Position numbers and translations under genes: made by a program
Sequence record: NC_054934.1
Reading direction: 5' to 3' (one strand)
DNA from: Escherichia phage teqskov
Length of the DNA stretch: 64,000 nucleotides
Shown here: one piece after another, positions 15,408 through 25,566 of the stretch
Numbering within the stretch: the first letter of the stretch is position 1
Layout of the letters: each line of letters opens with the position of its first letter
The notes under the pieces: generated by a model
Seen by the model: only the letters and a program-made list of their open reading frames with translations
Told to the model about the DNA's origin: nothing
Databases searched by the model: none

Positions 15408-16104
<697 letters not shown>

Positions 16105-16116
16105 CTTCATAAAGTT

Positions 16117-16156
16117 GTTTACACGCTGATGAGGTAGTGATACTATTACCTCATCA
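16117..16156 (+). promoter_or_regulatory. early promoter cassette with inverted repeat (PeSL-like)
   Basis: GTTTAC box followed by 10-bp inverted repeat tgatgaggta/tacctcatca flanking gtgatactat. Confidence 0.5.
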
Positions 16157-16176
16157 AAATTAATTAGGAAAATAAA

Positions 16177-16434
16177 ATGAAAACTTATAAAGAGTTTGCT
16201 ACAGAAACTATTATCACTGAATCTTCTCATGGTATGGAAGTAAAGCTTGGAATGGCTTTAGCTGAAGCTGAGCGTCTTTTTTCTCGTATTAAAGAACTTG
16301 CTGCTGCAGTCGATCCTTCATCTTTTAAAGGAGACCAAACTAAAGTTAAAGCACTTTTAGCATTATGCTCTGATGCAGGAGAAATCGCTAAGAACGGTTC
16401 TAAGATGAAGAAACGATTAGAAGATTTAAAATAA
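16177..16434 (+). CDS. internal-protein-like small protein with capsid-targeting-type N-terminus
   Basis: 85 aa; N-terminus MKTYKEFATE resembles the T-even internal protein leader MKTYQEFIAEA. Confidence 0.6.
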   Translation: MKTYKEFATETIITESSHGMEVKLGMALAEAERLFSRIKELAAAVDPSSFKGDQTKVKALLALCSDAGEIAKNGSKMKKRLEDLK

Positions 16435-16446
16435 TTTCACAAAGTT

Positions 16447-16490
16447 GTTTACACGGGGTTTTAGTAGTGATACTATTACCCTATCAAAAC
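16447..16490 (+). promoter_or_regulatory. early promoter cassette (second copy)
   Basis: aaagttgtttacac plus gtagtgatactattaccctatc, near-identical to the copies at 16111 and 16741. Confidence 0.5.
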
Positions 16491-16512
16491 AAATGTGAAA
16501 TTGGAGAATAAA

Positions 16513-16746
16513 ATGAAAACGTATCAAGAATTTATTGCTGAAGCTGCTGATGTAAAAGTTGAGTTTATTTACATTGGCAAGAAAGATAAAATGGGCGAAA
16601 TGCCTCATGGAGTTCTTCGTGATGCATTAGATAATTTCGGTCAACTCGGTGGTGAAGAGTTTGGTGATTATTTTGTTATCTATGGACCAGAAAAAGTCAT
16701 CGAGAAATGGGCTGATAAATATAAATCAATTTTTCGTAAAAAATAA
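16513..16746 (+). CDS. internal-protein-like small protein
   Basis: 77 aa from ATG (MKTYQEFIAEA); track start 16495 is a GTG extension. Confidence 0.6.
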   Translation: MKTYQEFIAEAADVKVEFIYIGKKDKMGEMPHGVLRDALDNFGQLGGEEFGDYFVIYGPEKVIEKWADKYKSIFRKK

Positions 16747-16786
16747 GTTTACTTTTAGATAGGGTAGTGATACTATTACCCTATCT
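16747..16786 (+). promoter_or_regulatory. early promoter cassette (third copy)
   Basis: GTTTAC followed by perfect 10-bp inverted repeat agatagggta/taccctatct. Confidence 0.5.
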
Positions 16787-16804
16787 ACTACTGAGGAGAA
16801 TAAA

Positions 16805-16990
16805 ATGAAACGTTGTGAATTAATTCGAAATGTTGCTATTGCAATTTCTGCTTCCGCTTTTAGTTTTTCAATGTTTGTTGGATTTATATGCGGATTATTA
16901 ACTACAGCAGAAAATGTGTTTTCACTTGTAGTAGCATTTTTAATTGGTTTAATCGCTATCGTTATGGATAAAATTTCTAAAGGTGAATAG
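16805..16990 (+). CDS. small membrane protein
   Basis: 61 aa, two hydrophobic segments. Confidence 0.5.
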   Translation: MKRCELIRNVAIAISASAFSFSMFVGFICGLLTTAENVFSLVVAFLIGLIAIVMDKISKGE

Positions 16991-17403: not shown

Positions 17404-17697
17404 ATGATTCTTTATGCTAAAGTATCATCCATTGAAAATGGATATAAATATGATCAAGAAGCAGCTAAAGCCTTGATTGATGATTATGGCATTTTAACAT
17501 GTTTTGAAGTTGAAAAGGTTTACATTGACCGTTCATCTTCTCAGGTTAAATTAGTGAAGGAAGACCGTAAATTTAATACAGTAAATTTTGATTTCTTTAT
17601 TGAAACGGAAAAAGGTCCTCTTGAATATGATATTTTCAAGAATCCTTTGGGTCTTGAATGTATTGAATATACTTACATTAATATGGTGAGCAAATGA
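17404..17697 (+). CDS. hypothetical protein
   Basis: 97 aa ORF, tight spacing. Confidence 0.5.
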   Translation: MILYAKVSSIENGYKYDQEAAKALIDDYGILTCFEVEKVYIDRSSSQVKLVKEDRKFNTVNFDFFIETEKGPLEYDIFKNPLGLECIEYTYINMVSK

Positions 17698-18209
17698 ATA
17701 TTTGTTTAGGTACTACAATTCCACAGGGTTACGTAATTGATGTCACTACCTGGGAAAATGATGGTGACAACTATAAAACTAAAACACTGTTTGGCGTAGA
17801 AGAGCATGAAATCTTACAATTCCAATATCTTTTAAAGAAGTTTAAAAGCAGACATTCTAGTACTAAAGCTGAACGTTATTGTGGTAATGGCTTGTTCAGC
17901 GAGCAATCGCTTTTTATTTATGAATACTTGGTTGAAGGACTGTTCTCAGAACAACTTTATCCAGAATTCATTAAAAAGGTCTTTGATATAGAAGTTGACC
18001 TTGGTAATAAATCCGAAGAAGACGAAGAACGCATATTTGACTTATTCTTTGTGAATGGTAATAAAGTGCTTGAAGGACTTATTAATATTTTAGGTAATGC
18101 TTCTGAGTATTATGATTATGATTTTTTGCGTGTAGTTGAGAGTGTTAAATACTCTTATATAGAAGAAGAAATTGTTTTGCCGACCGTTAAAATGTTTAAT
18201 TTGCTTTAA
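17694..18209 (+). CDS. hypothetical protein
   Basis: 171 aa ORF overlapping previous stop. Confidence 0.5.
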   Translation: MNICLGTTIPQGYVIDVTTWENDGDNYKTKTLFGVEEHEILQFQYLLKKFKSRHSSTKAERYCGNGLFSEQSLFIYEYLVEGLFSEQLYPEFIKKVFDIEVDLGNKSEEDEERIFDLFFVNGNKVLEGLINILGNASEYYDYDFLRVVESVKYSYIEEEIVLPTVKMFNLL

Positions 18210-18716: not shown

Positions 18717-18792
18717 GCTGATTTAGCTCAGTAGGTAGAGCAGTTGACTGTTAATCAATTGGTCCATGGTTCGAATCCATGCATGTCCGCCA
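18717..18792 (+). tRNA. tRNA-like gene, probably chimeric or defective (anticodon position reads GUU)
   Basis: normal D, anticodon and T arms, but 5' acceptor gctgatt pairs with 3' catgtcc at only 3 of 7 positions. Confidence 0.5.
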
Positions 18793-19016: not shown

Positions 19017-19571
19017 ATGAGAAGTGATGTAGACTGGGACCAAATTAATTTGGCTATAAAAGCTGGATTAATATACCATGGTAATTTTGAAATAACACAA
19101 GAACTAATTGAAAATGTTGCTTTTCTTAAAATAACAGATAAGAAAAAATTCTTTTCTATGACTGAAGCCAAACGCTTGTCAAAATGGAAAGTATTTTGTA
19201 GGACTGCCGCCCTAAATCTTTTGAAATTTAAAGATGAATTTGATATAGAAAAAAGCTATCGACAGGCTTTCGTATACATAATGGTAGATACTACAAATCC
19301 TAATTATTATAAAATAGGAAGAAGTATAGAACCTGATGTTAGAGTTATAACAGCAAATACATTTTCACCGTTTAAAAGTTTTAAAATAGTATCATTTAGA
19401 TATTCCCAGGATGCAGTAGAACTTGAAAAATATATGCACAGCATTTATAATCAGGACCATATAAATGGTGAATGGTTTTTCTTTCATGACATAAGTTCCA
19501 TAGTTAAAAAATTAGATACTAAATCTACACAATTTGAAATACCAAATGAGAAACCGGGTCGCTACCGGTAA
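19017..19571 (+). CDS. T5orf172 / GIY-YIG-related domain protein
   Basis: 184 aa; segment VYIMVDTTNPNYYKIGRS ... R ... E..Y.H ... GEWFFF fits the T5orf172 pattern; no N-terminal GIY-YIG as in segB. Confidence 0.55.
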   Translation: MRSDVDWDQINLAIKAGLIYHGNFEITQELIENVAFLKITDKKKFFSMTEAKRLSKWKVFCRTAALNLLKFKDEFDIEKSYRQAFVYIMVDTTNPNYYKIGRSIEPDVRVITANTFSPFKSFKIVSFRYSQDAVELEKYMHSIYNQDHINGEWFFFHDISSIVKKLDTKSTQFEIPNEKPGRYR

Positions 19572-19859
19572 GTCGTCGGACTGATGTTCCCTGAGTAAGG
19601 AATTGCGTTAATAATCTTTGCGTTTATTGATGCCCTCTTACATCACAGCAGAAACGGCGCACCGAATTATCGATTCGAGGAAATATCTTTGCCGTAAGCC
19701 GAGTAGCGTTTTTGACGGAACGTTCGGATATGGTCGAGATATGGCCTTTTAAAAATATTGAGTAGCGTCAACTACTTAATAACCGGGTTCAAGTCCCGGC
19801 GTTTCGTACAAACACTTGCCTTAGCAGGTGGAACCCCGACAAGGTTGCCGCAAGGCTTA
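19572..19859 (+). ncRNA. probable stable RNA region (T4 species 1/2-like), boundaries not resolved
   Basis: non-coding, GC-richer, contains tRNA-like T-arm ccgggTTCAAGTcccgg; same position relative to tRNA-Arg as the T4 stable RNAs. Confidence 0.35.
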
Positions 19860-19886
19860 GCCCCGACCGAAAGGTTGGGGCTTTTT
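19860..19886 (+). terminator. rho-independent terminator
   Basis: 9-bp stem with GAAA loop (gccccgacc gaaa ggttggggc) followed by TTTTT. Confidence 0.7.
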
Positions 19887-19888
19887 AG

Positions 19889-19896
19889 TATAAATA
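19889..19896 (+). promoter_or_regulatory. late promoter TATAAATA
   Basis: exact TATAAATA about 35 nt upstream of the ATG at 19933. Confidence 0.5.
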
Positions 19897-19932
19897 AGTA
19901 TATTAAAACCACGAATTAAAACAGGAAATAAG

Positions 19933-20406
19933 ATGAAATCATATGCTCAATTTTTAAATGAAGCGGTGTTAAATGAAGCATCTAGCACTGAAATTCAAGC
20001 TGTTGCAAAAGCTGCCATTGCCGCGGGTAAATATTCCTATAAAGATGCTTCCGATGAATCACGATTCCAATTTGCTCGTGATATGAAAGCCGAAGGATTT
20101 ACAGGGAATGCAGTTAGTATGGCTTGGAAAAGTTTAGTTGCTACTGGAGCTGCTTTTGCAAAGGCTTCAGGTAAACCTGCTCCTAAGGCTGATCCTAAAG
20201 CAGCACAAGAAAAAAATATTGCTAAAGGAATTATCTCTAGGTATGAAGCAATTCTTAAAGAACTTTTGATAATCAAAACTGAAGGCCAAAAGCTAGCTCG
20301 TGCTTATAGTTTCAAAGATAACCCACATGTTCACTCTCTTGAATATGTTGAAGACATCCAAAAAATTATTAAAGACCGCATTTGGTCTGCTAAACAAATC
20401 AAATAA
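19933..20406 (+). CDS. internal-protein-like protein, Ala/Lys-rich
   Basis: 157 aa; N-terminus MKSYAQFLNEA resembles the internal protein leader. Confidence 0.55.
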   Translation: MKSYAQFLNEAVLNEASSTEIQAVAKAAIAAGKYSYKDASDESRFQFARDMKAEGFTGNAVSMAWKSLVATGAAFAKASGKPAPKADPKAAQEKNIAKGIISRYEAILKELLIIKTEGQKLARAYSFKDNPHVHSLEYVEDIQKIIKDRIWSAKQIK

Positions 20407-20414
20407 CATTCTTA

Positions 20415-20441
20415 GCCCCAGCCGAAAGGTTGGGGCTTTTT
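20415..20441 (+). terminator. rho-independent terminator (near-duplicate of 19860-19886)
   Basis: gccccagcc gaaa ggttggggc followed by TTTTT. Confidence 0.7.
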
Positions 20442-20575: not shown

Positions 20576-20605
20576 GTTTACATCCCTGTTCTTCCATGGT
20601 ACTAT
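20576..20605 (+). promoter_or_regulatory. early promoter cassette (PeSL-like)
   Basis: ttttcacaaaactGTTTACa ... tgGTACTATacaactatcaactactgatacag; near-identical copy at 61825-61890. Confidence 0.55.
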
Positions 20606-24611: not shown

Positions 24612-24645
24612 GTTTACTTTCTCCTAGAATTGTGATAGTATATTC
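24612..24645 (+). promoter_or_regulatory. early promoter upstream of denV
   Basis: GTTTAC box followed by tgtgatagtatatt -10-like region with flanking inverted repeat. Confidence 0.45.
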
Positions 24646-24666
24646 ACAGTTACTTGGAGGGATAAA

Positions 24667-25083
24667 ATGACTCGTATTAATTTGACTTTAGTATCTGAAC
24701 TTGCTGATCAACATTTAATCGCAGAATACCGTGAATTGCCACGTGTTTTTGGTATAGTTCGTAAGCATGTGGCAAACGGTAAGCGCGTTAAAGATTTTAA
24801 AATATCTTCCGAGTTTATTTTAGGTTCTGGTCATGTTACGTTCTTTTACGATAAGTTAGAATTTTTGCGAAAGCGTCAATTAGACATTATAACGGAATGC
24901 TTAAAACGAGGGTTCAGTATAAAAGATACTGAAGTTCCTGACATCAGCGATATTCCAGTAGAATGGAAAAATGATTATAATCCATGCAAATCAGCTATTA
25001 AATTGAGTCAACAACGACTTGATGAAAAAATTTTAATGAAACCACATTGGTATAAGTATTACGGTAAAAATATTTACATTTAA
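24667..25083 (+). CDS. denV: endonuclease V (pyrimidine dimer glycosylase) denV
   Basis: 138 aa; N-terminus [17 protein letters not shown] and overall pattern match remembered T4 endoV, with divergence in the C-terminal third. Confidence 0.9.
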
Positions 25084-25092
25084 AGGAAACAT

Positions 25093-25566
25093 ATGAAAAC
25101 ATATCAAGAATTTATCACTGAAGCAGCTATTAATTCTCAAATTATTGCTGAATCTTTTACCGATCTTTTGAAATTTAAAAAAGGTCAAAAAATCACTGCT
25201 GTATTGGATGATGGTACAGAAGTTGAGATGGATGTACAGGGATATAATTATGCAGTAGATGGAAAACTGTATAATAAATCTCATGCTAAATTTGATTCAT
25301 TTGACGACTTTGTTAATACAGTTGAAGATGAAAAAACTCGTAGATCCATTGCAACTGGTGATGCTAAGGTTCTTATGGCACATGGTCATGAACGCATTCG
25401 CGCTAAACAGAATAAAATGGGTGAAGATAATTTTGCATTAGTTGGTTATCAATCTGGTAAACAAACTTATGGCTATCAACGTACTGCTACCATGTATAAT
25501 AAAAATGGTAAAATCGCTTTCGTGAATAGTAAAGGTTCTATTCAGTACGTTAAATCGTTCAAATAA
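25093..25566 (+). CDS. internal-protein-like protein
   Basis: 157 aa; N-terminus MKTYQEFITEA matches the internal protein leader. Confidence 0.6.
   Translation: MKTYQEFITEAAINSQIIAESFTDLLKFKKGQKITAVLDDGTEVEMDVQGYNYAVDGKLYNKSHAKFDSFDDFVNTVEDEKTRRSIATGDAKVLMAHGHERIRAKQNKMGEDNFALVGYQSGKQTYGYQRTATMYNKNGKIAFVNSKGSIQYVKSFK

Follow-up and report, generated by a model that had tools for sequence, protein, structure and literature searches.

Predicted early-promoter cassettes with an overlapping inverted repeat at the boundaries of internal-protein genes in a T4-like phage

The stretch analysed here (the window) consists of 64,000 nucleotides of Escherichia phage teqskov (record NC_054934.1, one strand), and all positions are counted from its first nucleotide. 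Between positions 16105 and 16804, three copies of a short intergenic element alternate with small genes in the order 57B / cassette / ip5 / cassette / ip6 / cassette / trna.4. These three elements are very probably the early-promoter/stem-loop cassettes of the internal-protein (IP) locus of T-even phages, which flank swappable genes for internal proteins. Judging from its database matches, the window is DNA of a T4-like phage (Tequatrovirus) and the region 16105-16804 is located in the classic ipI locus of T-even phages. The stretch 15600-17100 matches 788 phage records, the best of which are Tequatrovirus genomes (98.6% identity with vB_Eco_Some, 98.4% with JK23 and 95.0% with both T6 and PST), and the ip5-ip6 arrangement is recovered with at least 80% of the query covered in 203 records. 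The matching stretch of PST is annotated gp1 / 57A / 57B / ipV / ipVI / tRNA.4 / tRNA.3 / tRNA.2 / tRNA genes. T4 displays 57B / ipI / trna.4 at the same position, ipI being flanked by the same two border cassettes. In JB75, two small genes are labelled Ip5 and Ip6, and a promoter predicted with phiSITE is annotated before each of them.

Anatomy of the cassettes

The initial annotation of the window, made from its letters, had described three near-identical elements of about 45 bp, each followed by a small gene. The three repeated elements are real: the 17-mer GTAGTGATACTATTACC is present without mismatch at 16134, 16464 and 16764 and has no other copy in the window, and the motif GTTTAC is found 14 nt upstream of GTGATACTAT in the three cassettes. 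With up to three mismatches allowed, 0.10 matches to GTAGTGATACTATTACC are expected and none of 100 shuffles gave three or more. The near-identity, on the other hand, holds only for the -35 box and the 17-nt core. The arms differ, and the pairwise identity of the cassettes is of 77-79% over 39 nt (83% over 76 nt for cassettes 1 and 2). The genes that follow are ip5, ip6 and trna.4, respectively (Table 1).

The boxes correspond to TTTAC[A/T], a 17-nt spacer and TGn-TACTAT, which is the UP/-35/TGn/-10 design of the T4 early promoters, known as "uber" promoters (Hinton 2010). Cassettes 1 and 2 are listed by the promoter scan (TTTACA-17-TACTAT, TG present, 9/12). Compared with the element that separates 57B and ipI in T4, cassette 1 shows 2 differences in the stretch from the -35 box to the ATG. 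Cassette 3, the GTTTAC of which abuts the stop codon of ip6, is identical to the cassettes of JB75 and of the IMG/VR contig L124 from GTTTAC to past the start codon of trna.4. From these features, each cassette would act as a strong T4 early sigma-70 promoter composed of an A/T-rich tract, GTTTAC(A/T), a 17-nt spacer and the TGn-extended -10 box GTGATACTAT, with a Shine-Dalgarno (SD) sequence and a start codon about 20-30 nt past the -10 box. With a promoter and an SD sequence in each cassette, ip5, ip6 and trna.4 would each possess their own immediate-early transcription signal. Promoter activity and start sites are predictions; from the promoter geometry, transcription from cassette 1 should start at about 16153, inside the 3' arm of its inverted repeat. 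A literature search for a T4 data set of start sites or 3' ends found none.

Gene content between 57B and trna.4

In IMG/VR, a 14-mer pattern was unspecific (single chance matches) and a 20-base gapped pattern recovered only 9 loci; the comparison was therefore built on the INPHARED phage records. In thirteen phages, the interval delimited by the conserved genes 57B and trna.4 is occupied in 10 different ways: ipI (T4), an ipI-like gene (ECO4), ip5-ip6 (the window, PST and JB75), ip5-ipI (RB14), ip5-ip7 (T2), ip5-ip9-ip7-ip8 (RB15), ip9-ip7 (IME340), ip1-ip7 (Shf125875), ip7 (phi25-307) and two open reading frames (ORFs) followed by ip9-ip7 (WG01). Nearly every gene boundary in this interval holds a cassette. 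The left part of a cassette, before the core, goes with the gene that precedes it: 57B is followed by type A, ip5 or ipI by type B ("gggttttagt"), ip6 by type C, ip9 by type D and ip7 by type E. The right part, after the core, goes in most cases with the gene that follows and is of type a (tacctcatcaaaattaattagg), b (taccctatcaaaacaaa) or c (taccctatcaactactgagg). The two halves assort independently: the combinations B-a, B-b, B-c, E-b and E-c are all present, which requires exchanges within the shared core. Furthermore, ip9 is found behind the right halves a, b and c, and the conserved leader codons are therefore probably a second exchange point. The modular array with gene exchange between the repeats, as the initial annotation had proposed, is supported by the 10 gene contents, the cassettes at the boundaries and the recombinant halves.

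Another explanation would be that the three elements are ordinary T4 early promoters without any linker role, their likeness being that of the promoter consensus and the polymorphism of the locus arising by illegitimate recombination or by homing-endonuclease-driven exchange. Other sites of the window do share tttcacaaa..GTTTAC..GTG(G/A)TA(C/T)TAT and ..ggagaataaaATG, and a homing-endonuclease-like gene lies nearby (19017-19571). However, the 17-nt core with its flanking GTA/TACC is specific to the locus (3/3 here, 0 elsewhere in the 64 kb), the module boundaries of the 13 phages coincide with the cassettes, the halves recombine around the core and, among the early-promoter-like sites of the window, only the IP-locus promoters have hairpins. 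This explanation is highly improbable.

If the cassettes link exchangeable modules, the exchange could proceed as follows. The cassettes share about 20-30 nt of near-identity, formed by the -35 box, the core GTAGTGATACTATTACC and, further downstream, the codons that are conserved in the capsid-targeting leader. During mixed infection, homologous recombination of the T4 type would cross over in these shared patches, and whole modules (5' untranslated region (UTR), IP gene and left half of the next cassette) would be inserted, deleted or replaced while the neighbours remain undisturbed. The outcome would be a diversified set of head-packaged proteins that are injected with the DNA. Such a shuffling gains adaptive sense from the fact that the T4 proteins Ip1, Ip2 and Ip3 are each a specific inhibitor of a different GmrSD-type restriction enzyme. 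The internal proteins may be seen as injected counter-defence factors, and the cassette array as a device of T-even phages to swap anti-restriction specificities and to shift host range. For the annotation of the present phage, Ip5 and Ip6 become candidate inhibitors of unknown defence systems; the finding is a further example and introduces no new principle.

One IP cassette, in locus L130 (IMGVR_UViG_2706796299_000001; GTTTAC at locus position 2081, minus strand), contains a 19-nt tandem duplication (gatactattacctcatcaa), which looks like the result of replication or recombination slippage at the core.

Table 1. Cassettes and genes of the IP locus in the window.
Feature	Coordinates	Strand	Components and annotation
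Gene 57B (Acb1, anti-CBASS), conserved left border	15646..16104	+	Pfam PF23474 Acb1 (2.7e-60); phrog_755; annotated 57B in T4, PST, RB14
Cassette 1	16105..16176	+	A/T-rich upstream tract; -35 TTTACA 16118-16123; TGn 16138-16140; -10 TACTAT 16141-16146; arms 16127-16136 and 16147-16156 (10 bp, 100%); SD AGGAAAA; then ip5 ATG
ip5, internal head protein, 85 aa	16177..16434	+	phrog_3499 "internal head protein" (3.7e-50); annotated ipV/Ip5 in PST, JB75, RB14, RB15
Cassette 2	16435..16512	+	-35 TTTACA 16448-16453; -10 TACTAT 16471-16476; SD GGAGAA; then ip6 ATG
ip6, internal virion protein, 77 aa	16513..16746	+	phrog_8111 "internal virion protein" (1.8e-50); annotated ipVI/Ip6 in PST, JB75
Cassette 3	16747..16804	+	-35 TTTACT 16748-16753; -10 TACTAT 16771-16776; arms 16756-16766 and 16777-16787 (11 bp, 100%); SD GAGGAGAA; then trna.4 ATG
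trna.4, 61 aa, hydrophobic, conserved right border	16805..16990	+	phrog_1692; annotated trna.4 in T4, PST, RB14

The inverted repeat around the -10 box

The first and third cassettes had been described with a perfect 10-bp inverted repeat enclosing the -10 box. This is exact for cassette 1, whereas the repeat of cassette 3 is perfect but of 11 bp; in both, the 10-nt GTGATACTAT lies between the arms. The DNA folds of cassettes 1 and 3 reach -8.3 and -9.0 kcal/mol (z about -3.5), and the folds of the sense RNA -17.4 kcal/mol (z -4.7) and -19.5 kcal/mol (z -4.1), respectively. Because its left arm is of the "gggttttagt" type, cassette 2 forms only a split and weaker helix, GGGGU/ACCCU and UAGUA/UACUA (RNA -16.2 kcal/mol, z -3.4; DNA z -2.0). 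Fourteen early-promoter-like sites were detected in the window, and the four most stable folds are those of the three cassettes and of the promoter of the second IP locus (24612). The remaining ten range from -1.5 to -8.4 kcal/mol, and the ordinary sites have neither a flanking inverted repeat nor the core GTAGTGATACTATTACC.

In 19 distinct cassettes aligned in one register, 86.8% of the cells of the stem are paired, a share that falls to 33-63% if the partner is shifted, and at five pairs both partners have changed in a compensatory way (e.g. AU/GC/GU at columns 11-32 and 12-31), although the cassettes are related by descent, so that covariation statistics overstate their independence and are indicative only. 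The two IP loci and a few other hyperplastic sites provide at least six unrelated arm sequences around the -10 box. They include GATGGAG in ECO4, AGGATGAT in Shf125875, the pair AGGGTT/AGGGCT in L129/L130 and, at the second IP locus of T4, AATTGTGA and CTAGAATTGTGA. A palindromic protein operator was rejected, the arm sequences being unrelated between cassettes. Selection seems to act on the inverted repeat around the -10 box as a nucleic-acid structure. The stronger proposal, that the stem is a functional structure of the IP-locus early promoters and not a relic, and that compensatory substitutions keep it, is tentative and in our view rather doubtful. If the stem is functional, it could mark the 3' ends of read-through transcripts from upstream (e.g. 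late ones) and make them stable or, alternatively, form a cruciform that focuses recombination on the module boundaries.

Promoters of this design are also found away from IP genes. In T4 (NC_000866, L003; e.8/e.7 intergenic region at about 70.3 kb) and in L124 (minus-strand offset 4910), an early promoter outside the IP loci has a perfect 10-bp repeat, ATAGGCTCAT..ATGAGCCTAT, around its -10 box. A promoter within a hairpin is thus not an exclusive property of IP genes.

The stem is followed by an A-rich sequence and not by a U-tract; the hairpin is therefore not a canonical terminator, and a terminator scan of both strands called nothing at the cassettes. No Rfam family was found at the cassettes either. 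As the cassette's own transcript is predicted to start inside the 3' arm, the hairpin would be confined to RNA that reads through from upstream and to DNA in a single-stranded or cruciform state. These observations bear on the possibility that the cassettes are composite promoter-terminator units, i.e. true promoter-early stem-loops (PeSLs) as in RB49 and phi1, the stem-loop of which insulates each module from upstream transcription. The stem-loops of the RB49 PeSLs, assayed in a lacZ reporter, are described as effective terminators, and the sense-RNA stems of cassettes 1 and 3 are stable at the energies given above. Nevertheless, the stem overlaps the promoter instead of preceding it, its 3' side is devoid of both U-tract and terminator call, and many natural cassettes have broken stems. 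In addition, Arbiol 2010 regards the IP elements as analogous rather than homologous to PeSLs and describes their AT-rich stems as weaker. We consider it unlikely that the cassettes are true PeSLs.

The inverted repeat could also act as DNA, either as a cruciform or hairpin that a structure-specific nuclease (e.g. T4 endonuclease VII) would cleave, with recombination concentrated at the cassette as a result, or as a supercoil-sensitive switch on the melting of the -10 box. The compensatory changes and the unrelated arms, which argue for a structure over a protein operator, are in agreement with such a role, as is the position of the half-cassette junctions at the loop or core. The DNA stems are, however, short and modest (-8 to -9 kcal/mol). 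Folding of the cassettes gives -12.95 kcal/mol for the sense RNA against -9.08 kcal/mol for the antisense, a difference made up mostly by two invariant G.T positions in the promoter core. G.T cells that pair only in sense RNA are frequent (51/266), which speaks against an action as DNA, though 36 of the 51 are in the invariant promoter core; the inner arms contain 15 G.T against 4 A.C, an excess that is weak and not independent. An action at the DNA level seems to us quite unlikely.

Besides the shared descent of the 19 cassettes, several points weigh against reading the elements as early-promoter/stem-loop cassettes of the IP locus. The third cassette precedes a gene that does not encode an internal protein (trna.4) and, with TTTACT and the same -10 box and TGn, it scores 8/12 against the sigma-70 consensus, just under the cut-off of 9/12. 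Promoter activity is attributed to the cassettes from the consensus and from the knowledge of T4. Likeness to the early-promoter consensus is also found at 20576, 35466, 36905, 47570 and 61842 in the window; the likeness of the cassettes is largely that of the generic T4 early promoter, and the IP locus is therefore not alone in this homology. Shuffling nevertheless seems to be confined to this locus despite the homology elsewhere. The recombination mechanism is deduced from mosaic patterns. Finally, cassettes with matched halves have a perfect stem (minimum free energy (MFE) of -16 to -18 kcal/mol) and hybrid cassettes such as T2 no. 2, RB14 no. 2 and IME340 no. 2 lose it (MFE of -2 to -10 kcal/mol); the phages can thus do without the hairpin, at least for a short time.

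Relation to known elements

Elements of this type were reportedly described in 1994 by Repoila and co-workers, whose abstract is said to mention a 70-bp flanking sequence in which a T4 early promoter and an inverted repeat overlap and which may mediate shuffling; the names Ip5 and Ip6 are said to originate from the same work. GenBank entry Z35082 (Ip5, Ip9, Ip7 and Ip8 of RB15), apparently deposited from the 1994 work, contains five such cassettes. According to Arbiol 2010, Repoila et al. 1994 observed these "PeSL-like" elements at two IP loci; the elements are based on T4 early promoters and may account for the plasticity of these loci. The same account is given for PST versus T4 by Comeau 2014, with the promoter consensus TTTACW-N17-TAYWAT and five IP differences between the two phages. 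As told by these later papers, the elements of Repoila, Tetart, Bouet and Krisch (1994, EMBO J 13:4181) and those of the window share the locus, the genes, the element itself and the proposed role, a recombinational shuffling of IP genes tied to host range. The cassettes of the window have the T4 early boxes, a repeat overlapping the promoter and a position 5' and 3' of ORFs with an IP leader. In the light of these accounts the window shows no substantial difference and represents one more ip5-ip6 allele set, in which the C-terminal third of Ip6 is divergent. The cassette architecture and the shuffling hypothesis are thus already known, having been published in 1994 and revisited in 2010 and 2014. 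The present analysis adds the table of half-cassette assortment, the covariation count, the loss of the stem in hybrids and the lack of terminator features.

The PeSLs of RB49/phi1, PST/T4 and nt-1/KVP40 (Arbiol 2010, Comeau 2014) are intergenic elements of about 50-70 bp with an AT-rich tract, -35 and -10 boxes, an SD sequence and an ATG, clustered in hyperplastic regions where they flank variable small ORFs. The cassettes are alike in all these respects, and the PST/T4 PeSL consensus fits them. Mutual recombination has been proposed for PeSLs and, for RB49, was shown by mini-circle PCR; for the cassettes, the recombinant halves and the 19-nt duplication of L130 are indirect indications of recombination between neighbouring copies. 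In contrast, a PeSL has its stem-loop ahead of the promoter, where it serves as a terminator. The AT-rich stem of the cassettes surrounds the -10 box and lacks a U-tract, and no terminating upstream stem-loop was found in the cassettes. With the generic T4 early promoters, the cassettes have in common the UP-like tract, the GTTTAC of the -35 region, the TGn-extended -10 box and the 17-nt spacing. Integron cassettes with attC sites offer an analogy only: there too, small adaptive genes form arrays, and the short imperfect palindromes between them are the points of exchange. Contrary to integrons, the IP locus has no integrase, each module has its own promoter and the exchange is presumed to be general homologous recombination on about 20-30 nt of identity. 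An element related to transposons or to miniature inverted-repeat transposable elements was rejected, since none of the genes annotated at the locus encodes a transposase and each half moves together with the gene beside it.

The internal proteins Ip5 and Ip6

The products of ip5 and ip6 begin with MKTYKEF and MKTYQEF, as had been noticed in the initial annotation, and both belong to PHROG families of internal proteins with full-length matches (Table 1), whereas Pfam contains no family for either. The true start codon of ip6 is the ATG at 16513 and not the GTG at 16495. The capsid-targeting leader suggested for the two ORFs is confirmed. That of Ip6, MKTYQEFIAE-A, is an exact match to the capsid-targeting sequence of T4 IPII and IPIII. 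That of Ip5, MKTYKEFATETIITE-S, has Y4, F7 and an I-T-E cleavage motif of the gp21 type, comparable to the ..STITE stretch of T4 IPI. For IPIII, capsid targeting requires no more than the first ten residues. In the capsid-targeting sequence, residues 4 and 7 serve for targeting and residues 8 and 10 for processing, gp21 cutting after L/I-x-E. From these leaders, Ip5 and Ip6 are predicted to be packaged in the virions.

In an alignment of the rows of the window, JB75 and PST, the Ip6 allele of the window differs from the two others mainly in a block of the C-terminal third (alignment columns ~653-725) and in the 5' UTR. This pattern suggests intragenic mosaicism or diversifying selection. The 5' UTR of ip6 in the window is of the type found before trna.4 in RB15.

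Neighbouring genes and other internal-protein-like loci

Gene 57B, the left border of the locus, is named "RNA ligase" in the RefSeq records, yet its Pfam match is Acb1, directed against the cyclic-oligonucleotide-based anti-phage signalling system (CBASS). The IP array therefore adjoins another counter-defence gene. On the right border, trna.4 starts with MKRCEL... and encodes a small hydrophobic protein that is not an internal protein. A 171-aa ORF (17694-18209, phrog_2290) lies between trna.2 and tRNA-Gln. It is missing from T4 and PST, and ORFs of the same length (516 nt) are found at this position in T2 and in Mosigvirus phages, which represents another indel at the edge of the locus. The homing-endonuclease-like ORF at 19017-19571 (184 aa, T5orf172/MUG113 domains) is located amid the tRNA genes, where T4 has segB. 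At 18724-18781, between tRNA-Ser and tRNA-Arg, a partial tRNA match was detected by Rfam (51 bits, model positions 8-63) and not called by ARAGORN; the match could correspond to a degenerate tRNA gene.

The second IP locus of the window (24612-25566) comprises an early promoter before denV, the -10 box of which lies in an imperfect inverted repeat (AATTGTGA..TCACAGTT), and, after denV, an IP-like ORF of 157 aa (25093-25566, starting with MKTYQEFITEAA...) with the same 5' UTR as T4 ipII and ipIII. The gene order is unlike that of T4 (ipIII-ipII-denV). Another ORF of 157 aa, at 19933-20406 (phrog_2280, "hypothetical" everywhere), starts with MKSYAQFLNEA, which resembles a capsid-targeting leader (Y4, F7, L8-x-E10-A) and is conserved in the homologs of JK1 (MKTYAQFLMTEA) and mogra (MKSYAEFLTEQ). 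Within 19859-20437, it is flanked by two near-identical terminator hairpins, AGCCCC..CCGAAAGGTTGGGGCTTTTT, at 19859 and 20414. This ORF may encode an unrecognised internal protein at a third locus, carried by a terminator-flanked cassette. T4 and T6 match only 15% of the 611-nt interval around it, in two short pieces, and therefore do not possess this gene. It is present in about 510 phage records.

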